From contig OZ360241.1 in assembly GCA_977017645.1 (NCBI GenBank), positions 73,594,001 through 73,658,000 of the forward strand: DNA of 64,000 bases, in the 5' to 3' direction. The first letter of the stretch is position 1. Each line of letters begins with the position of its first letter. The DNA comes from Torpedo marmorata (Eukaryota). The notes under the pieces are model-generated. The model was not told the DNA's origin and did not search any database. It saw nothing but the letters and a program-made list of their open reading frames with translations. The position numbers and the translations under genes are program-made. This document shows, in pieces, positions 7,957 to 31,027 of this stretch.

Positions 7957-8170
7957 CCAGGCAACAGCGTACAAGCGCCAAGGTATCATCGCTACAAGGC
8001 ACAGCACATTACCAAATCGAGTGGGGAAAAACTTTGGGATGCAAAAACGGGAGACCCACAGACTAGTGCAAATTAACTGAACTGTGCTGTGGGGTTTAGT
8101 TTTTTTTAATTCAAAAGATTATTCATAGGTAATGTGGGTTAAAAAAAGTAAAAAAGAAAAACACACCAAC

Positions 8171-8182
8171 CTTCTCGTAGCT
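8171..8182 (-). CDS. PTPRS: LAR-RPTP mini-exon B (12 nt, ELRE), Ig2-Ig3 linker
   Basis: Minus strand ...ccccctacatccctcag|AGCTACGAGAAG|gttggtgtg; with the phase-1 G from the 111-nt exon it reads GAG CTA CGA GAA = ELRE, the known meB peptide, in the expected exon order. Confidence 0.93.
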
Positions 8183-10469
8183 CTGAGGGATGTAGGGGGT
8201 TTGATGCAGAACACAATGACATGGGGAGAAGAGAAATAGGGGAAACACAGAGAGAGTAAAAAGGCCTCTTCAAGGCTTTTAGCTGCAATATCTACTCTCA
8301 CTAACGACCTTTGACCTTTCCACCTTGACCTTCAAGAATCAAATTTTTTGAGTGACATCTCAATAGTTCTTTTGAGGGAACTGACTTTTAACTCAAACAA
8401 TTCCATTGACAAATCAAATTAAAAAGTAAATAAAAACTAACACAAGACTTATTATATCACGACTCATAACTTAACATTTATTCCCTTCCATCTCTTTCAC
8501 CTCTTTCTCTAGTCTTTGGCAATTTGACGGGAATTTCCTCGGATTGCCATGAAGCATTTTGGTTATGTTCCCTGTAGCTCAACCTTTGGGCCCGCCGGAG
8601 AAGCCTTTGTAAGAAGTGAAAGAGATGCGGGCATTTCGTTCCCATTTGTCCCGCGCAAGAGCAATTGACTCCAGCTCTCGACCTCCGCGCCAAGCCCGTG
8701 TGGAGCCTGCAGCCCTCTGGACAAGGCCCCACGCCACAAATCGACCCCACACTTGGCGCTGGAGGAAATGAGTCTGCTCTTTCCGGCCATACATCCTTCA
8801 AAACACAGCAGAACCCTGTACGTCACAGACTTGGGAGGAAGACGGAGAGGGATTCAATACTCATCCCCCTTACATCTTTATGTTCAAAATGGAAAATTTC
8901 AGGAAAGAAAATCATTTGGGTTATCTTCAATACGTCACCAAAGACCTTTCATCGCTCCTTCAAATTGCTCTATATTTCTTTCCCAATATTAAAAATTGTC
9001 TAAATGGCACTCATTTAAAGCAGTTTTTTTTCCAAATCACATGTTACCTTTCCTTCTAGTCAATTTCGTCCATGACCTTCAAACCCTCTTCGGGAGGTTG
9101 AAGAGGCTGTCAAGCAACAACCCCAAAGCTATGGTCAAATCGTTAACTACGTGAACCCCTGAAGACAGAGCTCAGGCTGTCGATAGTTTGCATGCATTTG
9201 AGACATAAAAACAATTCTAACAAATTACTTCCTTACATCATGCGTGTACTTTACATGTAAAGCAGGCAAGGGGGATAATACTTCAACAATCTGCACTCCA
9301 GTTAATTGACAAGTCGATGGAGTAAATGCATAACTATCAACTGGGAATGCTGTTCTACCTACACCTTGGCCATTATGTTAATATGCTGCATTAATATTTC
9401 CCCTTTGTGTTGTCATTTCATCATTTTCAAATTATTAGTTGTTACAGTGCAGTGACAGCAAGGCCTACAGCTGGTCTGCACTGCTCGAGGAATTGAGAAT
9501 AGATTGAAAGAATGTGGGCATGAAGACAAAACTCAGAGATTACAAGGCCTCAACTGAGAGAGACAGTGGATAAGAACAGAGGCATGATTAATCTTTTTTT
9601 AGTCAAAAGATCTGTAGTCTGTCAAAATCATTGAGAGTTATCAATGTCCAGTGCACTGATCTTCACTTTCAAAACCACTGATCATTGACGAAGGCAAACA
9701 TGGGCTGGAAGATTGCACCAGCTTTCACTCTTCCCTTTGGCTGCCACACTTCCATCAATCTTCCCAAAACTTCCAAGCCTCCATCTAATGTAAATTGTCC
9801 TGTCAAGTTTGGCTGCATCCTGGAGGATTGGCCTGCACCCAAGATCTCCCTTGTTTAAACATCGAGACGGAAAATGGCTATGGGGCAGGATGGAGTATTT
9901 GATTCTTGAAATGAAAGGTCAAACATGGGCAGAATAGGCTGAAGCTGTGCAATTCCATGTTTCTATCATATAATGTTCTTCCCCGCCCATTGAATATCAA
10001 GGTTTTGACTTGCTGAGAGGTGTTGCTTTAACTCAGCTTTATGGTCTATACAAGTTTCCAATAAAACAAAGGTGAATAAGTTCTCAGAAAATGCAGGACC
10101 TATGAAATTACATCAGTTTGATAGACTGGCTTAGTTAGAGCAAAGTAAAAGTCGTCTCACTTTCAAAATACTTGCTGCCGTTCTATTAAAATTGAACTTT
10201 GCCAGTCTCGAATTTACAGTTGGCAGAATAAGCTGAGTGTGCACTTGAAAGGAATCCCAAGTGGTTAAGATTGATGGGGCTTATTTCGGATGATTCTCTG
10301 CACTGCTAGAGCTAAAGTGTTAAGGGATCCAGTCACTACGTTATGAAGCGAAGGAACTGTGATATGGAAGCACAAAAACATGTGGATGCCAGGATCCAGA
10401 GCAAAAAAATCAAACTGCTGGAAGAACGGTCCATGGAGAGGAGATGACCCTTGGGACGGTGACCATGGC

Positions 10470-10942
10470 AGTGAGGGTCTCTGAGGCTGAAGAACACACA
10501 GGTGGTGGGCTGTTGGCGACTCAAGGCGAGGAACCCATGCAGGCTGTGGGCTGTTGGCAACTGTGGTCGAGGGATTCACACCGGGCTGCGGACTGCTGGA
10601 GACTGGCTCAAGACTGGCTGAAGGGGATCCAAGTATTGGAACTGGGATGCGGGAGGGTGCGCTGAAGGATTTCTGATCGTGTTGGAGTTTGGATCTGGAG
10701 CTCGGGCTGCTGATGGTTTGGACTGGACTCTGTGTGGCTACCGGGGCTGCGGGAGCGCTGGAGGCGAATCCACAGATACTCGGTGACTCTGAGGGGCTCT
10801 CTTTTGCTTCTCTTTCTCTGACTGTAAAAGGCGCTTCAGGCAATTTCTGCCGATGGCGAATCTGTCTGCCTTACAGCAGATGAAAACAAATTTTGTGCAA
10901 TATTCCACTGTCTTCATTACCTGACAGTAAATTGAATCTTGA
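10470..10942 (+). mobile_element. Unclassified non-autonomous retroposon (GC-rich body, LINE-type 3' tail)
   Basis: Collinear with 14715-15160; ends in gacagtaaattgaatcttgaa. Confidence 0.65.
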
Positions 10943-11112
10943 AACTCAGCAGGTCAGGCAGCATCTGTGGAGGGAAATGGTCAGTTGACACTCTGCATCA
11001 AAGTCCTGCTTTGGGACTTGAAGCAGGGTTCCGACCCGAAACATCGACTGTCACTTTTCCACCACAGATGCTGACGGACCCACAATATTCCTCGAGCAGT
11101 TTGCTTTTTATC
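10942..11112. mobile_element. Penelope-derived head-to-head terminal fragment
   Basis: aaactcagcaggtcaggcagcatctgtgg is mirrored by ccacagatgctg...; contains cttgaagcagggttccgacccGAAAcatcg. Confidence 0.6.
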
Positions 11113-11484
11113 ATGAGGTGGATGTTTTGGATGGTTGTGTTACCTTAAACAGACAAGAATCCTGCACTGTCCAATTCTGAAATTCACCATTGCAGTGTTG
11201 TAGAGAGGAAAGGGGACGAAGTCACAATATGTCCCTGCCTTAATCTCTGGGATTACAGCTGGAACCCTGGGGCAAATGAATGGTAATGCTGGCTTCCTGA
11301 CAACTGTTAAAGAATCCCAAACTCAGATCAAACTCCAACTCAGGTCTTGACTGGACCTGAACAAATGGCAAAAGGCTTCTCAGAATTTGGCATCAACGTG
11401 GGCAGCAGTGAGGTCACAACGTCCATAGGCGGATTGAAATTGCACAGCTTTCCACTCAGGAGTCTCCTTAAGCTGAAGGCCTGA

Positions 11485-11612
11485 AATTTCTGATGAAAGG
11501 TCTTCAACCCGACACGTTAACTCTGTTTCTCTCTCCACGGATGCTACCTGAACTATGGAGCACTTTCTGGCTGTATTTCAGGTTTTCAGCATCTGCAGTT
11601 TCTTGCTTTTGA
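11485..11612 (+). mobile_element. Penelope-like terminal fragment with hammerhead-like motif
   Basis: CTGATGAaaggtcttcaacccGACAcgttaactctgtttctctctccacggatgct...ccagcatctgcag-type ending. Confidence 0.6.
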
Positions 11613-12463
11613 GGACCTGGGTTATTTAGTCAAATAGGATTTCATATGGCGGAACAAATTATTCAAAGGTACCACAAGCAAATACCAAATAACAGCAATT
11701 GTGTATTACTTGGACTGTTATTAATGAATTCATCAAGCAGTTTGTCATGGATGCTAATTCATTTCTCTTCTGTGGCATGATTGCGGATTTATGTGTTGCA
11801 ATAAAGCATTGAATGCTGGCATTCCCAGCGTAGATGCTCTTCACTTTCCTGAGGTCCAGGTTCGTTCCTCTCCTGGTGTCTCCAGGTTCAGCCACGAACT
11901 TAGCAGGTTGAGAGGCACCAAGTCAAGCCAGACATTTCTCCTCAACAAGCAGGCAGTGTGAATCTGGATCAATCTTCTCGAGACTTCAGTGCAGGAAGAG
12001 ACATCCCTACACAACAACACAAGTTTCACCGCGATTATAGCTTGATTTTGTCAGCTTTCTACACCAGTTACATGCAGCCTGAGGCTCGGATCGTGTTCTT
12101 TAAGGAGCTGATTAGATGGTGCTCTGCAGTCATATGATAGCAAGAATAATCCACCTCTTGTTCTTTGTCACCTGCTCCCAGATTCTAGATGCGTTGGATG
12201 CTTTATCTGGGTAATCACTGGAGTAAAAGCCTCCAAAGACTGTACAGAAGCAAAGAGGACACATTTTCATCAGAGGCTGTTGTGTCAGATGCATGTTAAA
12301 GGACTTCCTGTAACAACAAAAGCCTTTTCTTCTACCTCTTCTTCACCTCGTGTGCTCCTTTAACATGGGGTAGCTGTTGCAGAGGAACTACCCACACTCT
12401 TAGCAGAGCTGAGTCTTGGACCAAAGGTCTGAACCAATTGGAAACCAGGCTCTGTTGCAGATA

Positions 12464-12640
12464 TACACACACACATATGAACACAAACATATACATGAAC
12501 ACACACACACAGACATGCACATACACGAGTGCATACACATACACGGACACACACACCTATTCACACACACACACACACACACATACACACACCCCTACAC
12601 ACACACACACACACACACACAACTACATGGACACACTCTA
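12464..12640. repeat. Imperfect (CA)n microsatellite region
   Basis: Direct observation; it produces the spurious HT/CV-rich ORFs. Confidence 0.9.
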
Positions 12641-14469
12641 AAGACACACTGTCTCACTCTGCCATGTACACAAATCAACCACAGCAATCACCAATAGATT
12701 TGGATTTATGCTTTTCTGTTGCTCCCGGAGATGCTTTGAGTGGATCACATAGCACAATGACGGTGCTTGCCGGCCAAGCTGTCTGCAACCAGCACTTCAC
12801 TGACCATGAAGAAAACAAAGTCAGTCCTTGTCATTTAGTGCCATTTCAAATGACAACACAAGTTAGGAAGAAATATTATATAGGTCCATCAGATTTAACT
12901 TAACAGGGACTCCTATGTGCTTAAAATGATTGTAACGGACAGTCCAGAGATAATGACTGGAATGGCCTGGTTCAGAAACAGTTCTTTTTGGCATGACTGC
13001 CTTACTTGGGGTTATCTAAACTGGACCAAGGTCAGGTTCACGTTGAACACAGATCTTCCTCTGCTATGTGAAAGTTGTCAGAGCCCAGGCACTTTCAAAA
13101 GCTGTTGATCCATCCATGGGGGAAAAAATAGCACGTTTTGTCATTGACCTTGTCCAGATTCTTGGTCTAATTACAGGCTTTAAATGAAGATTCAGCAGTT
13201 CACAGTTGATAGTTACGCTGTCATCTCTGGAAGGATCTGGATGGACAAATGATACCTTCCAGCTTGACAGAAAGGTCAAAAATTGTGAAAAATCACTCAA
13301 GCCACATTATTTAATCCTCGTCCACTCCTCCATTATCAACTTCTGGGTCAAAGGCCAAATGATGGAAAATATCTTAAAGATATGAAAATGAACAATACTT
13401 TTAACAGTCACCAAAGCCCACTGGTCTGTTCTTCCATTCCAACAGATAATGTCGGCCCTTGTAAACATTTTCAAAATGATCCCCCACAAATTTTCTGGCA
13501 TGTCGAGAATTGTACGGTGTTCACAGATATCATGATTTGTATTACTAATTATTTCACACGTGTTAATTTTGGAAACACGTTATGCTTTGCACTCACAGGG
13601 CATAATCTTAACAGTGACACGGTCATTAATGGCCTCAGTGAGAAGACTTACGGATTTTCGATACAATAGGCTGCATCAAAAGTGGGAAGGAATTATTCCA
13701 AACTCATGCCCACTTTACACATTTCAGTGCCCTCAGGTGGCTGAAGCTGGAATGAATGTAGATCCAGTGAGATCTGGAGACCTTTTAAATCCTGAACTCA
13801 TTCTTTGACTGACCTTAACTATATTCTAAATCACAAATTACACAAAAAGCTGAATAAGCATCTTCCCTTACTACCTACTACCTACAACCTATCTTCAGAT
13901 AGAACAGGGGCGTATATCATTAGATTTGAAGGGATTTGAACAACCAGCTTCTCAGCAGTAACTGTACTAAATGAAGCAATGTTGCAATGGTTTTCAGTGT
14001 AACAGCAATGGTGAATTATACTACTTTGACCCTTTCATTTTGCTTTTCTCTCTTCCTCATGGTTAACAGATAAAAGTATCCCTTTATTAAAGAGCCAATA
14101 ATTCCTCCCCAGTTAGTGTATTAGGGGCTGTGCATTCTGCTCCATTCAAGTCATTGGAATCAATTGTAGTAGAGTACGCAGCCACATCCGTACAGTCTTA
14201 TGGGACAATAATGGATTTCTGCGAACTTGTTTCCCACTCTTTATCTCTCTTAAAGTTTAATGTTAATTAAGAATACTCTGGAGCTGGAATGATTCATTCC
14301 AATGGAAAACACAGTTTTTGCTCTGTTAGTTGTTTGAAGTCAGGGTGATGGCATTGGCCTCAGTGTACCTGGTTCAGGGATAGAGTTCTTGTCCTAAGTT
14401 CACTATCATCCTGTATCCCTGTTGGAAGCTCATGTTGATCATACCTCATCCATGATCCTGCGAGTTTCT

Positions 14470-15160
14470 GCAGATGCATGCCTCCTCGACAGCCTGGCAA
14501 CAGGCCGGTCCACGGAGCAGGCCGCGACATGGGCCCGGGGGTGGAGATTGATGTGGAGAGATGGAGAAGGTGATTGCATCAAACGAGCTGGTCCTTGCTC
14601 TCTGCCATTCCCATGTGGGTCTGTGACCTGACTTGTGGGCCTGACTGTTCGTGCACTGTGGACCTCGGTGTCTTCTCTTCCTGCCTGGTCGGCAGTGAAC
14701 AGACCAGTGCATGCGGCGGGCTGCTGGCGACTCGATGCGAGGAACCCGCGGAGGCTGTGGGCTGCTGGAGACTGCTGTCGGGGGACTCACGCCGGGCGCG
14801 GACTGCTGGAGGCTGGCTTGATCAGGCTGGAGGAGTACCAGGTATCGGAACTGGGATGCGAGGGGGTGCCGAGGGCGCCCTGACCGTGTTGGAGGTTCGA
14901 ATCTGGAGCTCGGGCTGCCATAGTTTGGACTGGACTCGGTGTGGCTGCGGAAGCGCTGGAAGCGAATCTACGAACACTCGGTGACTCTGGGGGACTCTCT
15001 TTTGCTTCTCTTTCTCTGACTGTAAGGAATGTTAGGGGCGCTTAGGCAATTTCTGCCGGTGGCGAATCTGTCTGCCTTGCAGCAGGCAAAAAGAAATTTC
15101 ATGGAATATGACACTGTCTTATTACTATGACAATAAATTGAATCTTGAATCTTGAATCTC
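14470..15160 (+). mobile_element. Unclassified non-autonomous retroposon with (CTTGAAT)n tail
   Basis: Same family as 10470-10942; CpG-retaining body; 3' end atgacaataaattgaatcttgaatcttgaatc. Confidence 0.7.
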
Positions 15161-15264
15161 GAAGATCTCATGAGCTAACCAGCTTGTGACTGGCACACCT
15201 GATTCATGGATCCATCCAACATGTGCTCCTCCCAAGGCCAGTCCCATCTCAGAAGATCGTCGAG

Positions 15265-15560
15265 TTAAACAGCACGGACTCAGGGCCTTCGGCCCACTGG
15301 TCCATGCTGGTCATGGAATCCACTTACACCAATCTTACATTATTCCCTACATTCTCCAGCTTCCACCCCCACGACACACCAGGGTCAATTCACAGTGCCC
15401 AATTAGCCTACAAGCCCACACGTGATGGGGATGTGGCAGTAAACAGGAGCACTCGTAGACAACCCACGCTGTCACCGGAAGAATATGCACACTTCAGACA
15501 GACAGGAGCAAAGGTCAGGACTGAACCTGGGATGCTGGAGCTCTGAGACTCCTCTCTCGG
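15265..15560 (-). mobile_element. Old tRNA-derived SINE
   Basis: acagcacggactcagggccttcggcccac 3' end and degenerate B-box/V-domain on the minus strand. Confidence 0.5.
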
Positions 15561-15936
15561 CATCACTGACACCCAGAGCTGCCTTGAAAATTGTAACCAA
15601 GTAGATTGATGTGTTTGATGTATTTTATTGAACTGCATAATTAAGCAAATTAACTTTCTTTTATCCTTAAAACTAGGACTAATATAACTTGTCCCCCTTG
15701 CTGCAGGATTGGAAATGAATTTATGCCTTTCTGTTGCGTCAGGATTGGACATCCAAATGGAGAGATGCAGCGGTGTTGATTGTCTGGATTTCTGTAACAC
15801 ACTGAGCCATGATATACGCCCCTGTGCTGTGCTGCTTTAGTGGAAACATTCAGGCACTAGATGTTGATAGATTTGGGTTCTGCTAGAGCCCAGCACCCTC
15901 TAGTGAGATGGTGCTGAGTAATCAGCCGCTCCCTAC

Positions 15937-16047
15937 CTCTCACGTATAGATTAGCGGGAGGAGAGTACCGCACCCCAGCGTTGTTCGATGCCACACACTC
16001 GTATTTCCCTTGGTCAGTTTCTTCGCTGTTCTCGATCTGCAGAGCAC
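15937..16047 (-). CDS. PTPRS: Receptor-type tyrosine phosphatase S exon (111 nt), second half of Ig domain 2
   Basis: tttcctgacag|GTGCTCTG...GTGAGAG|gtaggg; translates (G)[36 protein letters not shown]; SEETDQ and AGVRYS match PTPRS rather than PTPRD (SEESDQ, AGTRYS) as I recall those proteins. Confidence 0.95.
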
Positions 16048-16589
16048 CTGTCAGGAAACAAATGGCAGCAGGGGGAATTAAAACCTCAGCAGTTCTCGCT
16101 GACAGCTTGTAGAAATGGCTTCACTTTCCTTCCGCCCTTCCATGCCTTGCCTGAACCGCCATAACCCACATGTTTGGCTTAATCAAGAGCATAGCGCTGA
16201 CTGCTGGAAAAGCAGCTGATGATTGGATATCTTGGTCCTGAGGAGAGGTGAGCTCTTTCATCCAAATGCCAAGAACCTTTTCTGCTCTACTTTTCCAGTT
16301 ATAAATCCCAGGACCTGCTGGAAGATGGTGCACCTCTCAGCCAAAACTGTGAGCTCCCACCATTAACGCTATACAATTCAACCCTGCACGCAGACAGATC
16401 AGGAGCTCCAAGGCGATTGTGCCCCTGTAAGTGGTAGTGCAATCTGTCAAGGAGCTGTGGGCCTTGCTTCTATTAACTGGCTATACCATGATCAGCAGAG
16501 GGCAAGTAGTGAAATGTCCTCATGAGACACCTGTTAGAGTCATCTGAACAGGGAATCATTAACCATGAATATAGCATCTCCCTGTTAGG

Positions 16590-16885
16590 GTCATAGAGTT
16601 GTACAGCACAGAAATAGGCCCTTTGGTTCACCCCGGCCTTTTTGCCCATCTACAGTAATCCCATTTGTCCATATTAGGTGCATATCCTTCCAGCACCTGT
16701 CAAAACACCTCTTAAATGATGTAATTGCAACTGATTCCACCACCTCTTTAGCCAACGAGTTCCAAATATAAACCACTTTCTGCGTTTAAAAAAAAGTTCT
16801 CCACAAATCCACTCAACACTCCTTCCTCTCACCTTCAACCTGTACCCCCTACCATGGGAAAAATTGTGACTGTGCCATTTAACAG
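16590..16885 (-). mobile_element. CR1 LINE 3' fragment
   Basis: catagagttgtacagcacagaaataggccc 3' end; minus translation 'WNSLAKEVVES'. Confidence 0.7.
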
Positions 16886-19800
16886 GGAACGCACCAGTTT
16901 ATACGCCACCGATTATCTGTGTGGGCTGAAATGAGACAGGAACAGCCTGGGACCAACACTTTCTTCACTGTAACACTGCTTGGGGTACTCAGCTCAGACC
17001 TCTGAGGTCAGTAGCCTGATCTCAAAGTTGTAGTTACATTCAACCTCACCTCCTGCCCAAGGGCACTATGTAACCCTTTAATAGGTCCAAGTCTGAAAAA
17101 ACAGCTTGGTATACTCTTGAGTCCAAGGTGCTCCGAACCTGTAGCCCAGTTTCAACTTTCCAATGCAAGTTCAGGCAATCCCATTTAAATTTAAATCTCT
17201 GTTTAAAAATGGGGCCAAACAGCGATGAGAGATGGGTGATGGGATGTTATAGCCTATAATACTGAAACATTAGAAAGACAAATATCTGATACTTGTATCA
17301 AAGACACTTTTCAAATAGAGTCATAGAAGTATACGGTCCCAATGTAGATTGGTGTAGACAGGTAAAGGGATCGGCATGGACCTGATGGCCGAAGGGTCTG
17401 TCCGCTGTACAACTCTATGACTCTAACTTTGCAATGCACATACTCTCTGAGATGTGTACTTAACATGAATCATTCTCATCCAAAGGAGGCTGAAATGGGA
17501 AAACAAAACACGTGAAGCCATTCACAAATCTATTTCCCTATTAGTTCACTGCTCCCAGTAATGGGGTCCCATTGTTTACAGCTGAATCTTTCCGCATTCC
17601 CACCTTCACATAGTCACCTCCTCCCGCAACCAATCCTGGTGGCATTGGCAGCTTGGAACTCTGACCCTTGAATGCAGCCATACTTCTTGTCAGTTTGGTT
17701 TGCCCTCTCATGGGCCCCTTGCTCGATCGGCACATAGCTGTGCACTTGCAAAGGGCATCGTAGAATTGGGAGAAACACACCATCAGCACATAGGACTCCG
17801 GCCCGAATGAGACACAGGGTCTTGAGGCGGGCTGGGATTTTATTTTCATTTCTGAGTTTACTTTTCAGGTTATTTTCCTAAACTTAAAGTCTGGCATTTT
17901 ATTTGAAAAGATCTTTCTGTACATTCCTTTCAACTGCCATCCCTTCCTTTCCGAAATACTGGGGTTTATGCCTTTTAAGGCCTCGATGTTCTTCCGATGC
18001 CTCTTCGAGAGCTCACTCCTCACGACTGGACCTGATAAATTAGATGCCAGGTGTCAGGAATAATTAAGACTTTAAGGCCAAGGCCTTTCTGTTTTTGCCC
18101 AGGTCCCATCATGCACTGTGACCAAGCACAACTCAGGATTAGAATTCTTCCTTCTCACCCTCTGGGAAAACTTCCTGTCACGCCCTGTCCGGCCAATGTG
18201 GCAGCAGTAATGGATCAAACCTTGGACCTGCCCTGGTCTTGATGTATTGGAAACCCTTGCCTGAATCTCCAGCATGCCGCCTTTGCCGGTCGTGCAGGAC
18301 TGCTGGAGATCAGCATGTTGTCCAACTGTCTCGACTATCAATGCACCAGGGAAGGCCCTCCACCGTCATCACCCTCACTTTCCCTTCCCTTGTTCATATT
18401 CCAGAGCAGATGGGCAAGACTGGTCCTTCACCCACGGCTTGTAAACATGGGCTGTGAACGATCATCTTCGATGTTGGGAGGTGCAGTATGAGAATACTCC
18501 AGCAGTTTGACTTCCCGTGATTCAGTTAGCCTGGGGCAAAGGCAGCAGAGGCAGGCATTTCCTAGGCCAGAAGGCTGCAGCATTGATAGGAAGCATCCCC
18601 TGGTTCAGGGGGCCGGCATCAGCCGATTCCTACGTACTGAAAGATTTATATGAACGAAGGGCTCAGTGAAGGCTACAGCTGTAACCATTGCCAGGCTCAC
18701 TATTATCAGGTACAGACTGAGCAGCAAGCTAGAGAACTCTTCTCTTTAAGGATTTATCAGCATTATCTCCACTGTAAGGGGGTTTGAGAAGACAGGAAAG
18801 GGGATCGCAGCAAGCTTTGAAAATTATATGGGCTTCTAATCAGAGGTTCTGAGGACAGGGCTCCACATTAGTGGAACTACACCCTCCTATTAAAGTCTGC
18901 AACCTTCAGATTGAGCTCAAGATGGTTCCACTGGGATGGAGGCTGATACATTTCTCCTGGATAGTAGCAGAGGTAGGGAACAAAGAATGCAGGAGGCACT
19001 GAGGAGCAGAGTTCCAGTTGTGTTGAATCACAGTACATTTCATTCTGTGAAGAGAACACAGAACCCTGCGTTCCAGTTGGCTGAATCACTCGTTCTCCAC
19101 ACATACTGTCCACACCCCCCACCCCCCACCCCCCCTCCACCCGTACCTGAAGGCCTTCGAGCACTGGTCCTGAGCTATCTGTTCCCTCCGCCCTGTGGGC
19201 ATCATCATTTGTGAAGTGTCGGGACTCCCGTATGATCCTATCCTTGCGTGAAATCTGTGAGGCGGTTTGTCTTCCTGCCCGGAGAAGCGGGATGTACAAA
19301 GCCAGTTCGCTCACCAAGCCCAGGAGCACAGTGGTTCATCAGAGCGCTCCACACACCATCCTGAGAGCAAAGGCTGGGTCCTAAATTTTATAAATAGTCC
19401 ATGGGTCGTGTGAAGAGGGAAGTCTTTAAAGGCCCATTATGGAGTTGCTGGACAGTTGGAGAACTGGATAGGAGATTGATTTTGTTGGCACTTTTCATTG
19501 AAACAATAGTCCAGATCACAGGGCTGGATATGTGGACATTATGAACATAGCACAGATATTTCTAACACAGAATTAAGCTTCAGGATGTGGGATAATGACA
19601 CCCTATATAGACTGTGCCACCTTATAACAGAAAGAGCAAAGACTTTTGAGCACTAGATTTCATAAAAATAATTTAATACACACACCACACCCGCAGTTTC
19701 TATTTTGTTTTTATCGACAAAGATGTCAGTCTCATTAGTCCTTGTGGCAACAGCACTCCTAGGTTATCGCGTGCGAGTGCCCTAACTAGAAGCGAGGCAT

Positions 19801-20386
19801 GACGGAGACAAGGGTTTCCTTGCAGCACTGATGTGAAGTCATGTATGTACTCTGACAATAAATCTGAAATCTGAAACCTGCTCATCTCTTCTTCCATGAC
19901 GACCTGCCTACAATTATAACCAATACAAGCCTGCCAAGCAAAAAAGTTCCTTGAGCTGGACCTGTCGAGGCAAAGATTGCCCAGGAGGGAATCTTCAATG
20001 CAATAGTTATCACATAGTAAGGTCCTCCAAAGTAAATAAAAGAACGAAGCTTGAAAAGTAAAAGGAGACAAAAGTTTTCAGTGGAGTCAGGTTGGCGGGG
20101 GCTGACATTGAGAGACAAATATGGAGCTGTGACTGGTTTTATGACACACAAAGCTATGATATGCTTTCAGTCAAAGCATATCGAATAGAGAAATATTGCT
20201 CTATTTAATACGTTCCAAAAAAAAACACAAGAGACAAACGGCAACAAAATACCAGACAGAAATAAAAGACGATTCTTTTGTTAAACGAAAATGAAAAGTT
20301 CTGAAAGAAATTGTAAAGGATAAGTAATTAAAACAAAAAGTCAACTAAAGAGAAGGTGAAAGTTCACCGACTTCCATCATTCTTAC

Positions 20387-20404
20387 CTCGTATTGGAGTA
20401 CCAC
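20387..20404 (-). CDS. PTPRS: LAR-RPTP mini-exon A6 (18 nt, GGTPIR) within Ig2
   Basis: Minus strand ...aactaatggttcttctttttaatcttatttgcattcatattatcctcgcag|GTGGTACTCCAATACGAG|gtaagaat; phase-1 reading GGT GGT ACT CCA ATA CGA = GGTPIR; branch-point-like ctaat and a strong donor. Confidence 0.94.
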
Positions 20405-20869
20405 CTGCGAGGATAATATGAATGCAAATAAGATTAAAAAGAAGAACCATTAGTTGAAGAAGACAGGTTGCGGGCTTTAGCAGCAGAAGCAGATTTTAGA
20501 AGTTTTCAGACATATAAACACTTCATTCTTTTTTTAAACTGCTGGTGGACCTCCAGTTAAAGGAAGACTGCCCGGAGAGGGGAGATGCCACATTTGAGGG
20601 GGTAGGAATGCTGAGCTTCCCAAGTCCAGAGCTTGGCAGCTTCGCAAACTCAGACCGCTGATGGATGTTCACCCACGAGGCATTCGATGCAAGGTATCCG
20701 TCGACCCGGCAACAGGACAGGGGGGTCGGAAGTGACCTGACTGGCTGGCGCGAGGCACCTCAAGCGGTCGGAGGATCAGCACTCTCTCCCCTCTCTCTCA
20801 AATTAATTAAACACTTTCCCCAGTTCCTAAAGCCTCAGACTAATCCTGTGATTGAGCTCTGTTGGCACC

Positions 20870-21380
20870 ACAGAGTCATGGAATCATACACCACAGGAAC
20901 AGACCCCCTGGCCCACCACATCCATGCTGTTGCTTTTGCCTCTCTGCACTAATCCCATCTGCCTGCATTAGGACTGTATCCTTCTGTGCTTTGCATATTT
21001 AAGTATCCGTCTAAATGGCTCTTAAACGTAGTAATTGTATCTGGAAGCATGTACCAATTAGCAAACACTCTCTGTATAAAAACTTAGGCCCCAGATACCC
21101 TTTGAAACTCCTTCTCACACCTTAAAATGACGCCCTCCTGTTTCTGATACCTCTGCCACGAGGAAAAGATTTTGCTATCTGTCCTATCCACATCAACCAT
21201 TATCTATCAGGTGACCCCTCAGCCTCCTTCATTCCAAGGAAGAGAAGCTCAGCCTGTCCCCCGTCCCCCCCCCCACCTCCACCATCACTAAAGTCATCCT
21301 ATCTAGGGAACATCCCGGTGAATCTCCTCTGCACTCTCCCCATAGCGTGGTGATCAGAAGTGAATCACTGCAGGTGAAAG
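20870..21380 (-). mobile_element. Degenerate CR1 LINE 3' fragment
   Basis: agtcatggaatcatacaccacaggaacagacccc 3' end and atcaggtgacccctcagcctcc / catcccggtgaatctcctctgcactctc motifs. Confidence 0.65.
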
Positions 21381-22769
21381 TAACTTGAAGCCTACCCCGC
21401 AGCTATCAGGCTCCTGAATGAACCCCACAAACAGTGCTATCATGCTACCCTTGCTTGGTACTAATTGATATTTTTTTAATTGTAACTCTACCCTCTGTAA
21501 ATTGTGCTCTTCTACTTTGTACAGCTGTATGTTAGAGCTTATTATTCACAGAAGAACCCTTCTCACTGTCCTGGGCATAATGTGACAAATAAATATCTTA
21601 AAGTTAAAACTTAACAAGGAGGTACGGTAGCTGGAGGAGCTGACAATCATTGAGCACTCCTGGGTCAAATGGGTTTTTGCAGTACGGTGCTAAATTAGGA
21701 TTTCTATCGTGGAAGATACATACCTTAGTCTGTTTCTCCCACGTGTCTAGTACCTTATCCCAAATCATCATCTGATCAACAGCTTGGTGGCAACCCATTG
21801 ATCATTGTCCAACCCCCACAACGCAGGCCCTAAACTCCACTAACCCCATCCCTGCCCACTTATCTGAGCTCCACCACCACAATAAACCCTCCTGGCCCCA
21901 ATCTTGCTCACTGACGCCATGAGCACGCCACATGGTTCCCTTCTACCCCACCCAACCCTCAGCCAATGGCCGCTGGCCAATCTCTCCTCACTCACGTCAC
22001 CAACTTGGCCTTGGAGCAGGGCAACATATTCACAACCCCAAACACATTCAATGCCTGAATCTACATCACCCAGTGCATGGCGATGCACCAGAGATTTCAG
22101 GGAAGTCTGCTGCGGTGTTGTTTGAAAACTAACCACTAGAGGGTGCCTGTGTACAGCCCAGAGCCCAGAAGAAAGGGTCAAAACAGATGGAACTTTTTCT
22201 CTTGTCTCCAATGATGTCTCCCATCCCATGGTTAATGTCTGTGCTGTCAGAGAAAGGTACAACACCTGGCTCACCATGGAAGCTGCTGAGAGACAGCCGA
22301 CCAGTCTAACCTCACTTCCCAGCTCCGGACCTGTTACCTGCACCAAACGAAGGCGATCAGATACTGTTGAAAATGACTCGCTGGGAAACTCCAACATTGC
22401 TCAGATGGGATATTTAAAGCATTGTGAGCAGTCACAGCATTTGACTGCTCTGAGAGTGTGGCACAATCTTTCTTTAAAAGGTGGCAGACACCAACATAGT
22501 GGCACAGTTTCAGGCAACATTTTACCACATTCTTAAAATCCGGCAAATGCTCGGGCTCTTGGACTCAGAGCTCAAACTAGTCGTGGATATTGATTGTTCA
22601 GCAGCCATTTCGGAAGGGAGGTGGATTACACTCCTACGCATTCTGGAACATTCCACTGAATAATGAACCCTCTTTCTGTGCTGTCGTGGGCAATCCAAGT
22701 CCAAGATCACCAGTGAACCGTGATCAGCTGATGGACTACCTTGGGGAAGAGGTGGAAAGGGATCCTTTT

Positions 22770-23028
22770 TTAAAAAAAATTTAGACATACAGCACGGTAA
22801 CAGGCCATTTCGGCCCATGAGTCCGTGCCGCCCAATTTTACATCCCATTAACCTACACCCCAGGTACGTTTTGATGGTGGGAGGAAACCAGAGCCCCCGG
22901 AGAAAACCCACGCAGACACGGGGAGAACGTACAAACTCCTTACAGACAGCGCGAGATTCGAACCCCAGTCCGGTCCCGATCGCTGGCGCTGTAAAGGCAT
23001 TACGCTAACCGCTACGCCAACTGTGCCC
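22770..23028 (-). mobile_element. Young tRNA-derived SINE (HE1/V-SINE-like)
   Basis: Full-length reverse copy: gggcacagttggcgtagcggttagcg...ggggttcgaatctcgcgctgtctgtaaggagtttgtacgttctcccc; many CpGs retained. Confidence 0.9.
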
Positions 23029-23064
23029 GTAAATCCATTTCTGATCCATTTTGCAGGATAATTT

Positions 23065-23400
23065 AGGACAGTACAGCCGCACAGCAAGTATAGCCATGGC
23101 TTCTCAGCGCTTGCGACCTGGGATCTATCCTGACCTTGGACCCTGTCTGTTTGGAGTTTGCACGGTCTTCCTACAACCCCTTGGATTTGTTCTGGTTTCC
23201 TCACGCATCCCATTTTAGGTTAATTGGCTGCTCTAAATTATCCCTGGTGTAAGTTAATGGTAGCATCTGGGAGAATTGATTAAAAAATGTAAGGAGAATA
23301 AAAAAAATGGAATTAATGTAGTACTGGTGTAAATGGATGGCTGGTGGTCAGTAGGGACCCAATGCAGTAAAGGGCCTGTTTCTTTTGGCTGTGTTTCTCT
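23065..23400 (+). mobile_element. Older SINE copy, head-to-head with the previous one
   Basis: gtttggagtttgcacggtcttcc...ggtttcctcacgcatccc...aaagggcctgtttc. Confidence 0.55.
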
Positions 23401-24239
23401 CCGAGACTCGAAAGTTCACTGCCAAAAAAAAGGGGAATTTGGGAGGGAGACAAAGCTGCTTGCTTTAGTACTTGGGCTGCATAGAGTTGCTTATAATGCC
23501 CATGTTTAGAGAGAGAATTGTTCATGTTTAGGCACATTAAACTGTGGGGGGATGGCAGGCTAATGAGTGCTTTGTTTGAGGGTGGAAATTCAGTACTATA
23601 TAAAGGTCTGAAGGCCAGTGCGCAACTGAAGCCTTTGCATACGTTGCAAGGAAACCAGATAAGTCCAATGGCACGGGGCAGAGAAAAGTCTTAGGTGTTT
23701 GGGATTGGAAGGATAGTTATTGGGCCAGATCAGAAGAGAGGCTGATGGCTGGGAGAAGAAGGGGAGGTAATCATGGTGGGAGTCAGACCACGATGAGAAG
23801 AGGGATCAGGTCCGAAATGGAAAAGATATGGGCAGGAATTTGGTAGGGAAGTGAAAGTCAGCAGTTCAGGAAGGTGGGGGAACCACTGGCAGGTTAACGG
23901 CCAGTGTTGGGGGGAGGGCAAGGGTTCCAAGGGAGGGAGAAGGGGTGTGGGAGTTGGGGAGTACCTGCTCTGACACCCGTCCTGTAGGTAACACGGAAGG
24001 TAGCTTCACCCAGGGTTGTACAAAGACACCTATTGTCTGAGTCACTCACGGCGATTGGAACCATCAACAACAATCCAGGGGTGTTTTATGCACATCCCTG
24101 AGATCCACCATACATTGACACATTGGATGTGTCGAAGAGGCAAGAGGAAAATTGTGGATGGTCGTAAACACCCCATTTTCCTCATGGTTTCACTTGCCAA
24201 TGAAGTTATGTTGTGTAGGGCATAAAAGTACAAAACAAT

Positions 24240-24405
24240 ATTTATTTATTTATTTTTATAGATAAAATACTTGTCCTGCATATGTATTGTTTGTCTGTAT
24301 GTGTGTTATATCTGGTTGTGTGTCTGCATGTTTTGCACCGAGGACCAGAGAACGCTGTTTCGTCGGGTTGTACTTGTGCAATCAGATGACAATAAACTTG
24401 ACTTA
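24240..24405 (+). mobile_element. Rex1/Babar-type LINE 3' UTR fragment
   Basis: gcaccgaggaccagagaacgctgtttcgtcgggttgtacttgtgcaatcagatgacaataaacttgactt; related ends at 36900-37000 and 42030-42095. Confidence 0.6.
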
Positions 24406-25109
24406 AGTGTAGCACCACCCAATCCTATTTCCACGTCTGTGAGTTTTGAAACAAGGGATTCTACTTTAATTAAAGGATGTCTTGGGCTTTTCAAACAGAA
24501 TATATTCACCCTCTATAAGGACATCTTGTGTCTTTGATGAAAATATGGCCATTTACCAATTATCTCATCACAGAGGAAAAAGGATTATCTCTTGCCTGGC
24601 ATTCAGGAGCTGTAGCAGGAATTGGCAGGTCAGGTGAGGTACAGTTGGGTGGAGAATAACCTCTGTCCTCTGGCCCAACAATCTGGCTCAGCTCCACGCT
24701 CAGATGAATCGGCCATAATCTGTCAAGGTGTCATGTTGGCTCATGTTCATCTGTTCAGGAGACATTACCTCGGTGCTGGGGTGAGGTGACAGACACGAGT
24801 CATCCTCCAGCTCTTGCTAAATCTCACTGCTGATGCGTGAATATGCTTGATGGGACAAGGTGGTAATTGGATTGTGGAGATGTCATTCAATGAGTCATAA
24901 TATCCGTCCTCGTGGCATTAAACCTCCACACTTCCTGTTGGGGTTCTAGGACAGAAATATGGAGACCCCTTCTCCCTACCCACCTCATCCCATTCCACAC
25001 CAGTTATTCCTGAACTCAAGAGCACTGAGCTCCAGTACTCTAATGACAACGTTGTTTAAGTGACACAATACATCATTGGCAGGGTGTTGGAGGAGGTTGT
25101 TACTGGAGA

Positions 25110-25410
25110 TGGGAGACGATTATTGGTGGTGTAATGGGTAGAGCTGCTGCCTTGTAGTATTGGAGACAGGGTTCAATCCTGACCTTGGGCACTCTGTGGA
25201 GTTTGCATATTCTCCCCATGATGGCGTGGGATTTCCCCCCTCCCTGGCCCAGGGTGCACTCTTTTCTTTTTTCAAATTACCCTAGGCAAAAGAAAATAAA
25301 GACGTTGGGGAGTTGCAGGAATATAGGGAATGGGATAGACAGGAATCCCTGCTGGCAGCCGGCATGGACACAATGGGCTGAACAACCTTCTTCTGTGTCA
25401 TACTTAGTGT
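25110..25410 (+). mobile_element. Older tRNA-derived SINE
   Basis: ggtggtgtaatgggtagagctgctgcc...gggttcaatcctgacc...gtggagtttgca (A/B boxes and V-domain). Confidence 0.6.
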
Positions 25411-28400
25411 TAATGTGGGTCTGCGCAGGTCTGGAAAGGCCAGGTGCTCCCAGGCAAAAGCCGATGAATCAGATGGTGCAGCCTTTCCAAGACATATGGC
25501 TCCTTTGAGTGCAAATGCCTTGTTGCTTTGAATTGAATGGTTTATGTACCGAGATACAGTGAAAAGCTTTGTTTTGCGTGCTATCCAGGCAGGTCAATCC
25601 ATACTTAACTACAAAAGGTAGTGCAATAATAAAACTGAAGTGTGGGATGTAATGTTACAGTAAGTTCAACAGTGTAGGGTATAGTGTTACAAAGTGAGAG
25701 GTATAGAGAAAAGTACAGTTATAACAGTGCAGGGGCATCATCTTTTAGCAATGAGCAATTTATTTAAGAGTCTGATAACAGCAAGAAAGAAACTGTCCTT
25801 AAATCTGTCAAAGTATGGAGAATTTTGTGTTGGTGCTACCAGGATCTTGATTGAGGAATTTGGGTCAATTTCAGGTTACCCTAAGCACTTGCAAATACAA
25901 GTCTTTGATCAACTGTGTGAAACAGCATCAGCAGACTAGCAGAATTGGACACCTCTCCCAGTGACAGTCAATCACAGGATGTAATATTCTGCACTTCCTC
26001 TCAGCTCAAGGAAAGAAACACAACACCCAACTTCAACATTAAAGTCAAAGAAAATATAATATATTGATAAAGGGAAACCATCCCTCTCCAAACATGTCGG
26101 ATTTACGTTCATTACCAGAATGTGCCAAACTGCAGCCTGAAACTGTGTTTCTAAAGGGAGTGGGGTGTTAATCTGTTAGGGTTATTAGGTACAGTTAATA
26201 AAGCAGATTGTTAGCTATTAGGAAGCACCTATATGAAATGGTGTTGGCACCAAGAGCTGAGATTAATTAAAGGAGAGGGAAAGGGTGGGTGGGGGGGAGG
26301 GGTGGGGGGCAGAGCAGTCGGAATATATTTTTAAGAGTGTTCCACGTTTTATGATTTAACAGAAGCTTTGGATACTGGAAGGAGTTTCACATCCAATGTA
26401 ACAAGCAGTTCCTGAACAGTAATTCCTGCCTACTGGTGTCTGACTCCAGGATCAACCAATCCTACGCGTCTCTTTGTGAAGCAGTGTTGAACATTCCCAT
26501 CCCCTCTGTTCCCCCGCCACCAAAGCTTTCAGCCACCTACCCCACATGATCTCCAGAGCGGGCACCAGGTTGACATAGCAAGAGGTGATAGGAGGGAGAG
26601 GTAAAAAGTGGGCAGAAGAAGGGAGATTGTATGGGGTGGAGTGACGAGGTGAACAGTGGGCGAGAGGGAAACAGGAGGGAGGGTGAAAGGAGAGGGGAAG
26701 TGGAAGGAGGAAAGGCGGAGGGATGCAGAGCAGGAAAATTAAATTCCACTTCTATCTGCAGATTTTTGTTATTTAAACGTAACCAGTTTAAACTGGAGCC
26801 TCCTTAGCAGAACAGCTGCCAAACTGAATTGTTCCATTTATCAGCAGGCGGTTTATGATAAAATTAATTAATAGCTGTGCTGGTGTCGGCTACTTACCTT
26901 TTGGTCAATATATTCAGGGGTCTCCGGAGAACCAGCGTTTGATCCAGTCAGGATTGAAACAACCCAAAGGGTTTCCTCTCCTCTCAATATTTGAGGAAGG
27001 CCCTGATATTAACAAATCCAGGTGCAACATTCAACCGGTGCCTTTGGTGAGGACGCCGAGGTTCTTAAGGTGTAATGCATGTAGCAAGGAAGGCCAGGTC
27101 AATGGGGGAGAAGGCCAGTGTGGAATGGAACTGGTGCCAAGAATGTTTTATTTCAAAGAAATCATCAGCCTAAAATTACATTACGAGTAAATCTAAAACT
27201 TACCTGCCGGAGTATACTCAGTGGTACCTCGCTTAGCACTCTGGACGCATTGCCAGGAGGGAGAATGGGAATGAATCAGCAACAAAATGGGTTATTATAG
27301 GATTATATTTATAGGGAAAGGTGCATGATTGACTGTAATGCTGTGATGGGACCCTGGAGTGAGCTCCTGCAGCAATGAATTGCTCATGGCTTGCCGCCTG
27401 TGATAATTGGTGTTGGACTGGCTGGGACAACCAGTGAGGATGCTCAGCACTGAGACAGGTCTTTGGTCTGGCCCCTGCTGGGCGCAGTGAGTAGCAATTG
27501 GCTATGGCTGCTCCATGTGTCACAAGAACAGAAGAAAAAAGAGCAGGAGTGGGCCATCTGGCCTGTCGAACCTGCCCCGTCATTCAATCAATAAAAAAAA
27601 TCACCTAAAACTTACCTGTGTCCCCTACAGCCATTCCCCTCCATCAAAATGAATGCACCACTGAATCTGAGCCAAGTATCACATGGCATTGATTTAGTGA
27701 CCAGCCTTCCCTGCACAACCACTAGGAACTGCAGCAAATTGGCTCTCAGCCTTTAAACTCCATGAGGAATCCAACATCAGAGATCAGAGACAAGGATCAC
27801 TCAGCAAGTTTGTGATGTTCCCATGAGAGGTTCTCAGAGCTGTTTTGAATTGCCAGTCAGAACCTTCCTACAAAAAAAACGTGCTCTGCAGTCTTCTGGG
27901 AATGTGGATTTTTTTAATGCAGCACTTGATGCATGTATTGATTCTCATCTACTATACTATACTATAATATTGGTGATTAGATTCATGATATAAATGCTTA
28001 TCATACCAGCTGATGATTGATGTGGAAACTACAAAATACAGGGCCTTTCTGGTGAATATCTAATATCTTGAATTCACTGTATTACAATATATTATGTTAC
28101 AACAGAGACACCACTTCAAAAATACCCAGTGGCTGAGAAGTATACAGGAGCAATTCATTGTGAGATCAATTTGCAGCTGGTAGGTTTGGGCAGTGAACTT
28201 TTAGTTCTGAGGAATGATTCCTGTCACTGTTGTATATGAGGGAAGGTACTGTTTCTGACATAGAACCCTTTCATCCACTTCCATTGACTTAGCACTGAAC
28301 ACACCTTCAAACCAACCCCTTCTACTCCTGATGACAGGGCTTAATTACAAGGGTTCCAAATGGCCTCTGATATTTTACCCAGTAGCCTGAGGCCCACTAT

Positions 28401-29834
28401 CTCCAATCAATCATTTTAACAATTGTGGTGAACCATTTAAAACCCTGAGAGTCACGAAACGCAGGCTTGAGTTTCAACAGATTATCTTGCATGTGGGAAC
28501 TACGATTAAGCCTGACCACATGATGAATTAATGGGGAAGGGGGAAGCAGTTCTGTTCAGTTCTCTTCTACCAGAGCAGTCATTAGGAATGGTCAGGAAAA
28601 GGAATTTGATTCCACTTTCCCTTCCATGGTCCAGGGTTACGAGGATAGAATTCTAATGTGTCAGTTCCAATGGTAGGATCCCTGGGCATCACTCACATTG
28701 TGGCGTTGCCAAAAGTACCATAAGCTACACTGTCCCAAATATACCACTCCATTACGTCATTAATACCACTCCAACAGTTCGTACCATTCTTATTGTACTT
28801 CTCCAATAGTACCATCCATTGTACTGCTCCCATTGCAGCCACAGTAATATTGCTGCAACTGTATGGTTCTTACTATACCAATCCATGCATACACTCCAAC
28901 AATACAGAAATTGTACCACTCCAACTGTACTGTCCAACAATCATGCACATTTCTGGCTAAGATAACTGCTCCAAATGTACATTTTAATAATCCCACTTCA
29001 ACTATATTATCCAATTGTTTTGCCTCACAGAACTCACACCACTCCAACAATATGGCTCCATCTCCACTACCCAATAGTAACCTCAGCCACCACCACCCCC
29101 CCCACCCCCCGACCCAACGACACTGAGCCAACAGTGTTACTCAAATCTACTGTTCCAACCTAACCGTACCATTGTGCCAGTACCACTTCAAATATACCAT
29201 CCAAATCCACCACACATCCTGTCCAAACATTTTGCTCTTTCTAGACTTCCAACTGTGGTGCTCCGACTTCAACATCTGAATGTTATTTTCCATTTTTACA
29301 TCAGCTGTAGGACAAAATATACCAATAATTGAGGAGAACCATGGAACTACAGAACTCTACAGCACAGAAACAGACCTTTTGGCCCACTTAGTCCGTGCCA
29401 AACTATTCATTCTGCCTCTTCCGATCAACCTGCACCCAGACTGTACCTCCCATCCATGTAACTATCCAATCTTCTCTTAAATGTCAAAATCGAAATTGTG
29501 TGCTCCAAATGTAACACTTTAACTGTGATACTACTCCACCTGCACCACTCTAGCTGTTGACACCAGTTGTACTGCCCCAATTGCACCAACCCAACGTGAG
29601 CCCCAACTACACTATCCTAATTTCACTGCCCCTAGATACCCGGCTGTATCTCCCCAGCACCACCACTTCAATGACAACTCTCTACTCTTTACTGCTCCAA
29701 CTTCAAGACCAAACTACTTTTCCAACCGTTCAATCCCAATCATAAATCCAACTACTCTGCCCCAATTGCATGCCCTGATTTTAGCCTCCAGTGCTACCTA
29801 ACTGCATTGTCCCACCAGACTGTCACTATGAGTA

Positions 29835-30040
29835 AAATGAAAAAAAAACTGCAGATGCTAAAATCTGAAATAAAGACAGAGAATGCTGGAAACACTCTAC
29901 AGGTTAGGCAGCATCTTTGGGGTGAGGTTGATGACCTTTCCGTTGAAGGATCATTGACCCAAAACGTTAACTCTGTTTCTTTCTCCATGGATGCTTCCTG
30001 ACCTGCTCAGCGTCTCCACCGTGTTTTTGTTTCTATGTGT
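29835..30040. mobile_element. Penelope-derived head-to-head terminal fragment
   Basis: aactgcagatgct...caggttaggcagcatc mirrored by ggatgcttcctgacctgctcagcgtctcca; decayed hammerhead-like gacccaaaacgttaac. Confidence 0.6.
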
Positions 30041-30125
30041 ATCTGTACAACCTCAACCAGCTCACAGCAAATTAACCCAACTCTATCATTCCCACATCAT
30101 TCTTCTAATTGTACCACACCAACTA

Positions 30126-30328
30126 CAGTAAAATCACCATTATCCGGAATTCAAGCAACCGGCAAAAATATCAGGGAAAATAAATAGGTAAAAAATACGA
30201 AAGTTTAAAATCGGTGCCCCCAGTGGTCAGTTCATCAATCCACGCAACACACAATCTCAAGCAACCAGCAAATTCACTATCCGGCATCTACCAATCCCCA
30301 TTGAAGCTGGATTCTGAGGGTTTTACTG
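30126..30328. mobile_element. Small Tigger/pogo-like MITE
   Basis: TA|cagtaaaatcaccattatccgg ... ctggattctgagggttttactg|TA: imperfect TIRs with TA duplication. Confidence 0.8.
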
Positions 30329-30944
30329 TATCTCGTTCTATCTGTAACTCTACATCTCAAAATGTAATGGTGAAAACTGTAGTCACTCCCACCCATCCCA
30401 TCTCATCTGTGTAGGCTGTACCAGTGAACTGCAACTCAAACAGTTACAGTCCATCTGTATGACAATAACTATTCTGCTTCAACAGAAACAGTATCACTTA
30501 CCAGTCTGAGAGTAATCCTGAACTCATTCTGATCCGTATGGCTCAATTTGCATTTACTCGTCAGTGCTGGAGAGAGCTTGCTTACTTTAGGAAATCAATT
30601 TAATACCCTGTTTAAATTTAAACTTGAATAACAAACACGGTCCCTGTGTGAATACAATTTGCAGAACTCATTAAAACTGAGCATGGTTGATCCTAAGACA
30701 AGACATGAGCATATTTTGAAGAAGAATCTGTATAGGTTAGATGTGGAACTCCAGGAAACAAGAATGGATGCAGAAACTGGTACTGTTCAAAAGGGTGCAG
30801 CATGAAGAAGTCCTAAGGGGTACTGGGTAAAATCCGTTGCTAGGTTATAGGCAGGGTTGTCTGATGGGGTTTAAAACAACAACAATCTGTGTAGGTTGGT
30901 TGGGTAGGACCAGCAGGTTTTATTAACAGTTAGTAAAATGCAAG

Positions 30945-30950
30945 CATGCA
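30945..30950 (-). promoter_or_regulatory. UGCAUG (Rbfox-type) motif ~70 nt downstream of microexon meA3
   Basis: Plus-strand catgca reads TGCATG on the transcript. Function is inferred. Confidence 0.5.
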
Positions 30951-31018
30951 TTTTAAGCTATTTGTGACATTAGTCTGGAGAGGGTTTTGTGAATTAGGCT
31001 TCAAAGGCCAATACTTAC

Positions 31019-31027
31019 CAAAGGACT
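31019..31027 (-). CDS. PTPRS: LAR-RPTP mini-exon A3 (9 nt, ESF) within Ig2
   Basis: Minus strand ...gttttctttctttctgttccttaatcttaaag|AGTCCTTTG|gtaagtat; phase-1 reading GAG TCC TTT = ESF (cf. PTPRD ESI, human PTPRS ETF); consensus donor and long polypyrimidine tract. Confidence 0.9.

Follow-up and report, generated by a model that had tools for sequence, protein, structure and literature searches.

The DNA analysed here is a stretch of 64,000 nucleotides (nt) from the 6.2 Gb genome of Torpedo marmorata (contig OZ360241.1, positions 73,594,001 to 73,658,000; hereafter the window). We conclude, with a probability of about 0.88, that the window holds the Ig2 part of elasmobranch PTPRS, the gene of a synapse-organizing receptor of the LAR family, together with three alternatively spliced microexons, meA3, meA6 and meB, and that this trio predates the split between PTPRS, PTPRD and PTPRF. 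The microexons and the coding exons around them are listed below.

31027-31019, minus strand: microexon meA3, 9 nt, ESF, AG/GTAAGT; recognized by its peptide and by its counterparts in the PTPRD and PTPRF genes of Torpedo
20404-20387, minus strand: microexon meA6, 18 nt, GGTPIR, AG/GTAAGA; same peptide as mouse PTPRD meA6 (PMC4423211), present in both paralogs
8182-8171, minus strand: microexon meB, 12 nt, ELRE, in the Ig2-Ig3 linker, AG/GTTGGT; the PTPRD copy reads ELRE, the PTPRF copy DQRE
31974..32159, minus strand: 186-nt coding exon of PTPRS for the first part of Ig2, with RIKQLRS at its end and a phase-1 junction; from protein identity, PDB matches and splice ends
15937..16047, minus strand: 111-nt coding exon of PTPRS for the second part of Ig2, GALQI...ANLYVR; from AG/GT ends and phase-1 junctions
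G000:C54:73582285-73582013: PTPRS Ig3 exon, 11.7 kb past the window's left end

The original prediction had described 9-, 18- and 12-nt segments with AG/GT ends, and their coordinates, ends, phase 1 and translations were all reproduced. It also remarked that they are absent from the track of open reading frames, which for exons of 9-18 nt would be trivial. meA3, meA6 and meB each occur once on the minus strand of the window, in the order predicted. Every junction is phase 1 and preserves the frame from the first Ig2 exon through the Ig3 exon, across introns that measure, in order from the 32159-31974 exon, 946, 10614, 4339, 7754 and 19885 nt. The two meA exons sit between RIKQLRS and GALQI, and meB between ANLYVR and VRRV. 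These sites, the exon lengths and the meA6 and meB peptides match those of LAR-family receptors, in keeping with the identification of the segments as meA3, meA6 and meB.

Segments this short might be chance AG...GT matches in long introns. Bare stop-free stretches of the right length are numerous in the host introns (61 AG-N9-GT in the 15.9 kb meA intron, 47 AG-N18-GT and 89 AG-N12-GT), and the case for meA3 therefore depends on the peptide and the donor, on conservation of the exon in both paralogs and on the protein models of relatives. When the host introns were simulated 200 times with a first-order Markov model, however, an AG-exon-GT pattern matching the peptide appeared in five runs for meA3, for which E-[ST]-[FI] was allowed, and in none for meA6 or meB. 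The same exons moreover recur in two paralogs and in proteins of relatives, so that chance is already refuted for meA6 and meB and has next to no probability as an account of the three segments. Looser E-[ST]-x 9-mers in the three LAR genes were dropped as candidates for their weak splice sites and lack of conservation.

Identity of the host gene

Judged by sequence, the window gene is the elasmobranch ortholog of PTPRS (PTP-sigma), because a phylogenetic tree and residue identities over three exons both place it there. In a maximum-likelihood tree of 18 proteins (1477 columns, microexon peptides removed; unrooted, one model, no bony-fish PTPRS), six elasmobranch 'S-like' proteins join chimaera, echidna and human PTPRS at 100/100, separate from four PTPRD and five PTPRF proteins. 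The three exons of the window gene match elasmobranch PTPRS at 182/187 residues, compared with 157/187 for bat PTPRD and 153/187 for skate PTPRF. The first Ig2 exon by itself is 98-100% identical to ray and shark 'PTPRS-like' proteins and 95% identical to human PTPRS, and its best matches in PDB are PTPRS.

The exon framework follows the domain order of type IIa (LAR-family) receptor tyrosine phosphatases, Ig domains before FN3 repeats, with the Ig2 exons inside the window and the Ig3 and FN3 exons found beyond it (L023/L024). Proteins that are 100% identical over the Ig2 exon carry PF00102. No Ig1 exon was found in the window or in a further 30 kb upstream, a search that took in about 62 kb ahead of the first Ig2 exon.

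The same trio in two paralogs

Three genome searches each returned the same three LAR loci, counts that are lower bounds. Identity over three exons identifies the other two as PTPRD (contig C2; 173/187 residues to bat PTPRD) and PTPRF (contig C22; 185/187 to skate PTPRF), and an exon on C22 matches elasmobranch PTPRF at 100%. Best PDB matches of single exons had given PTPRD for both paralogs and were set aside as non-assigning.

Exons of 9, 18 and 12 nt occupy the same sites in all three genes and have the donors GTAAGT, GTAAGA and GTTGGT in each. The peptides are ESF, GGTPIR and ELRE in PTPRD, and ESF, GGTPIR and DQRE in PTPRF, where meB was located by flank alignment; a scan requiring three of the four residues of ELRE did not pick up DQRE. 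The PTPRF copy of meA3 is described by the following entry.

G000:C22:216833968-216833960 (L017): PTPRF meA3, genomic exon, ESF, same 9 nt as that of PTPRD, donor GTAAGT; 570 nt before meA6 and followed by UGCAUG and ACUAAC

Conserved intron elements around the microexons

The introns next to meA3 and meB contain blocks that are shared between paralogs.

8151..8286, minus strand: intron block at meB common to PTPRD (88%, 140 columns) and PTPRF (74%, 117 columns); from blastn and alignment
30924..31077, minus strand: intron block spanning meA3 common to PTPRD (69%, 155 columns); from blastn (E 9e-7) and alignment
30929..30950, minus strand: UGCAUG (30950-30945) and ACUAAC (30934-30929), both downstream of meA3 and putative binding sites for RBFOX and QKI

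Compared without gaps, the 40 nt upstream of meB are identical at 38 positions between PTPRS and PTPRD, and those upstream of meA6 at 32 between PTPRD and PTPRF; nine comparisons at constitutive exons gave 8-26/40. Downstream of meA3, UGCAUG and ACUAAC, which we take to be the RBFOX and QKI motifs, both occur within 100 nt in all three paralogs, and in the 200 nt scored they occur together after none of 15 other exons. The background of each is about 0.08-0.22 per 200 nt, and the pair was first spotted in the alignment, so this comparison is not a blind test.

The flank upstream of meB has UCUCU at -73, -71 and -52 and UGC at -26, a layout of the SRSF11/SRRM4 enhancer type. The same UCUCU/UGC layout is described for mouse Ptprd meB (PMC13080001) and given for SRRM3/4 targets generally, 21-26% of which are reported to lack UGC (bioRxiv 2024.09.17.613571). 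Upstream UGC is present at meB in 3/3 paralogs, at meA6 in both paralogs scored and at meA3 in 1/3 (PTPRD only), and is common before constitutive exons too. The trio has features of the SRRM3/4-regulated neural microexon programme in its length class (3-27 nt), its preserved frame and its conserved flanks, and meB also has UCUCU/UGC before it. PTPRS meA3 differs in having the downstream UGCAUG/ACUAAC pair instead of an upstream UGC.

Two further non-coding blocks common to PTPRS and PTPRD were seen in the meB-Ig3 intron (77% over 70 columns and 69% over 180 columns). They lie at L022:398-736 (G000:C54, about 9.3-9.6 kb past the window's left end) and at L012:3191-3463. A splicing element or an enhancer is a possible function of these blocks; neither L012 nor L022 matched any Rfam family.

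Protein models of related species

Insert combinations were counted in 57 elasmobranch PTPRS models, a sample made up of best matches and listed cluster members, in which both the search and the choice of sequenced tissues introduce bias. Such protein models are usually built on RNA sequencing alignments. Seven models carry ESFGGTPIR and ELRE, three ESFGGTPIR alone, three GGTPIR and ELRE, one GGTPIR alone and four ELRE alone; one has a garbled meA and 38 have no insert. At least one insert is thus present in 19/57, ESFGGTPIR in 10/57 and all three microexons in 7/57. ESFGGTPIR appears in public protein models of four shark and skate species (Amblyraja radiata, Chiloscyllium plagiosum, Chiloscyllium punctatum and Carcharodon carcharias). 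RefSeq models annotated as elasmobranch 'PTPRS-like' contain the identical inserts ESFGGTPIR and ELRE and show no substantive difference from the window gene.

These counts bear on two expectations of the original prediction. Its suggestion that automated annotation often misses exons this short does not hold for the 19 models with at least one insert. It also suggested up to eight isoforms; six of the eight possible combinations are represented among the models of related species, and the two with meA3 and without meA6 are unseen there. meA3 without meA6 does occur in teleost and vole PTPRD models. Inclusion of the microexons in Torpedo marmorata mRNA is predicted, and up to eight isoforms may be made.

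The garbled case is a Mobula birostris model (P0569) in which the meA site reads ERYCGTPIR, probably a mis-aligned meA3, and it illustrates the trouble that 9-nt exons cause in annotation.

Alternative readings

Two alternatives concern the relationship between the genes. The meA peptide of the window gene resembles that of PTPRD, as would be expected if the gene were PTPRD itself or a fourth LAR paralog that bony vertebrates no longer have; its Ig3 begins VRRVPP, as in PTPRD, and several database entries call it 'delta-like'. This identity conflicts with the 100/100 tree support for PTPRS and with the separate PTPRD on contig C2. A fourth paralog was considered and appeared in none of the three genome searches, whose three loci are a lower bound, and we regard the whole proposal as very improbable. 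The trio might alternatively be common to the paralogs through convergence or gene conversion, and the unusual likeness of the meB upstream flank in PTPRS and PTPRD (38/40) could be read in this way. The three genes, however, are each on a chromosome-scale contig of their own, their exons show silent differences, PTPRF meB differs as it does in human LAR, and the likeness is restricted to short blocks, which makes conversion or convergence more improbable still. Descent from a common ancestral gene is the reading we retain.

Several observations weigh against a shared, alternatively spliced trio. Mouse Ptprs barely includes or expresses meA (PMC10883964, PMC4423211). Among the 57 elasmobranch PTPRS models, 38 lack any insert and none has meA3 without meA6, while ESF or DQRE appears in 0/32 elasmobranch PTPRF models, though DQRE is a known exon that is present in Xenopus models. 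The ungapped upstream flank of meA3 matches between paralogs at 15-17/40, no higher than constitutive flanks, and no UGC was found within 100 nt upstream of meA3 in PTPRS or PTPRF. Among the homology-search matches, no lamprey or hagfish LAR was identified; P0420, a protein of undisclosed species that contains ESFGGTPIR, was left aside. Some of these points fit a more limited alternative, in which the exons are real and ancestral but PTPRS meA3 and meA6 are rarely included, so that the working code is mostly meB on or off, with a negligible share for most of the eight isoforms. The mainly meA-minus state of mouse Ptprs (PMC10883964, PMC4423211), the 42/57 elasmobranch models without meA, with meA3 alone in none, and the missing UGC at PTPRS meA3 all favour rare inclusion. 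On the other side, a meA peptide identical to that of PTPRD in the same genome, with conserved flanks, would be hard to maintain unused, and 14/57 models do carry ESFGGTPIR or GGTPIR. We consider rare inclusion unlikely.

Comparison with mammalian receptors

Mouse and human PTPRD (meA3 ESI, meA6 GGTPIR, meB ELRE) share with the window gene the three sites, the 9/18/12-nt lengths and the meA6 and meB peptides. The differences are that the host gene in the window is PTPRS and that meA3 reads ESF, matching ESI at 2/3 residues and found as ESF in teleost PTPRD models. The window PTPRS is also one residue shorter than mouse and human PTPRD before RIKQLRS and has one extra residue in Ig3. Both length changes were seen in cartilaginous-fish PTPRS when compared with human PTPRS and mouse PTPRD, as a one-residue deletion directly before RIKQLRS (window 31974-32159) and a one-residue insertion early in Ig3 (L023).

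Human PTPRS, the orthologous gene, has the same sites and the same meB, ELRE, with a meA of ETFESTPIR (PMC6078854). The window meA, ESFGGTPIR, matches this human peptide at 6/9 residues and that of PTPRD at 8/9. Human LAR (PTPRF) has GGSPIR as meA and DQRE as meB, and Torpedo PTPRF likewise has DQRE and a meA6; it differs in its genomic ESF exon, as no meA3 is listed for human LAR in the review PMC6078854. DQRE and ELRE are both given as meB peptides in PMC8711739.

Origin of the trio

The simplest reading, by parsimony, is that ESF, GGTPIR and a four-residue meB were present in one ancestral LAR gene, ahead of the duplications from which PTPRS, PTPRD and PTPRF arose, because the trio recurs in PTPRD and PTPRF with identical lengths and donors and with conserved flanks. 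These duplications were probably the two vertebrate genome duplications. The original prediction dated the trio to early jawed vertebrates; it is at least that old, and this age is probably an underestimate since the trio is shared with PTPRD and PTPRF.

Across vertebrates, ESFGGTPIR is the meA of all three elasmobranch genes and of teleost PTPRD, whereas tetrapod PTPRD has ESIGGTPIR. PTPRS models of cyprinids, frogs and mammals have EAFEGTPIR, ETFENTPIR, ESFESTPIR or ETFESTPIR, and GGSPIR is the only meA reported for human LAR (PMC6078854). If the trio is ancestral, human PTP-sigma with its ETFESTPIR is derived, and so is human LAR with GGSPIR only. Elasmobranchs would have kept the ancestral meA in all three genes, while PTPRS of bony vertebrates would have drifted and tetrapod PTPRD would have changed ESF to ESI; human LAR is reported with meA6 only.

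Amphioxus offers a lead on the earlier history of the meA site. Its LAR was represented by 18 models (including P0434, P0550-P0563, P0288 and P0389), of which five have an E-starting 11-12-mer at the meA site, five a 12-13-mer ending in IR and four no insert; two have odd inserts (P0435, P0556) and two unmatched (P0561, P0563). None of the 17 matched models has a meB insert, no model has both insert types in tandem, and the likeness to meA3 and meA6 is slight. These inserts may point to an old alternatively spliced site and are no proof of exon homology.

A more far-reaching scenario would make the two-exon meA switch a chordate invention that arose before the vertebrate genome duplication. 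The single LAR gene of amphioxus would swap inserts at this site, vertebrates would have reduced these inserts to meA3 and meA6 and gained meB prior to duplication, and cartilaginous fishes would have kept ESFGGTPIR in all three genes. We offer this scenario tentatively, as a possibility on the doubtful side. If it is true, shark PTP-sigma and LAR with meA9 and meB would bind IL1RAPL1, and the exclusive pairing of mammalian PTP-delta with IL1RAPL1 would be a later division of labour, reached by change, silencing or loss of microexons and not by change in the Ig domains.

A crinoid gene was also seen to vary here. Nine isoforms of a LAR-like gene of Antedon (P0264, P0390-P0397), a putative ortholog, differ at the meA site and have 2, 7 or 23 residues between the anchors.

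Proposed function

Mouse PTP-delta has meA inserted between two strands of Ig2, IL1RAPL1 is contacted by Glu188 and by Arg196, the residue with which meA6 ends, only the meA9 and meA6 variants bind this ligand, and meB acts as an Ig2-Ig3 spacer; specificity among paralogs seems to rest on meA and meB alone (PMC4423211). meB is required for Slitrk binding, aids SALM5 and may hinder TrkC, while meA makes no contact with Slitrk, SALM5 or TrkC (PMC6078854). Eight meA/meB variants are described for PTPRD (PMC13080001), and deletions of meA and meB in zebrafish ptprd are reported to give mild phenotypes (PMC12626420). The control of binding to IL1RAPL1, IL-1RAcP, Slitrks, SALMs and TrkC that the original prediction invoked is thus known in mammals, but the PTPRD binding code is not directly transferable to the window gene because this gene is PTPRS, in which mouse meA is barely used.

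By analogy with mammals, neurons would include the microexons through SRRM3/4 acting on the UCUCU/UGC enhancer at meB and probably through RBFOX and QKI downstream of meA3. meA3 and meA6 would lengthen the loop between two Ig2 strands, and IL1RAPL1 or IL-1RAcP would be contacted by the first Glu of meA and by the Arg that ends meA6. meB would lengthen the Ig2-Ig3 linker and so favour Slitrk and SALM binding, and it may disfavour TrkC.

The residues reported to contact IL1RAPL1 (Leu153, Leu185, Ser187, Glu188, Arg196, Ala198 and Tyr273; PMC4423211) are unchanged in the window PTPRS, by a hand count covering Ig2 and Ig3 only. Since these residues are unchanged and specificity seemingly depends on meA and meB alone, shark PTP-sigma with meA9 and meB could bind IL1RAPL1, unlike mouse PTP-sigma. 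The same prediction would follow from the ancestral code.

Relation to earlier work

PMC10987577, bioRxiv 2024.09.17.613571 and PMC12626424 state that neural microexons are conserved between sharks and humans, with reference to work by Irimia in 2014 and by Torres-Mendez in 2019 and 2022. The exons described here are well-studied microexons, of textbook standing and present in annotations of related species; their conservation in sharks is to be expected, and their value for annotation is small. No study of these exons across paralogs, sharks or amphioxus was found in a literature search that left most subscription journals, supplements and splicing databases outside its reach, and these may well already contain the paralog result. 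The addition made here is modest: the trio recurs, along with conserved intron elements, in each of the three paralogs, and amphioxus supplies a lead.

The likely ancestral state of this synaptic splice code is ESFGGTPIR in all three receptors. Intron elements that seem to have survived since before gene duplication, namely the 140-nt meB block and the UGCAUG/ACUAAC pair after meA3, are candidates for the regulation of Ptprd microexons, which is called largely open in PMC13080001 and PMC10883964.

Other features of the window

The intron upstream of the first Ig2 exon (window 32160-64000 and L026-L028) is very long and repeat-rich. It holds a near-intact LINE with an open frame of 850 amino acids on the minus strand (window 49102-51651), which matches PF00078 (E 7e-33) and PF03372 and has reverse transcriptase and endonuclease domains. 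Tandem arrays were seen at 5144-6419 (a GC-rich 25-mer in 29 copies), at 41500-41674 (a perfect 24-mer in 7.3 copies) and at 58735-58993 (a 32-mer in 8.1 copies).

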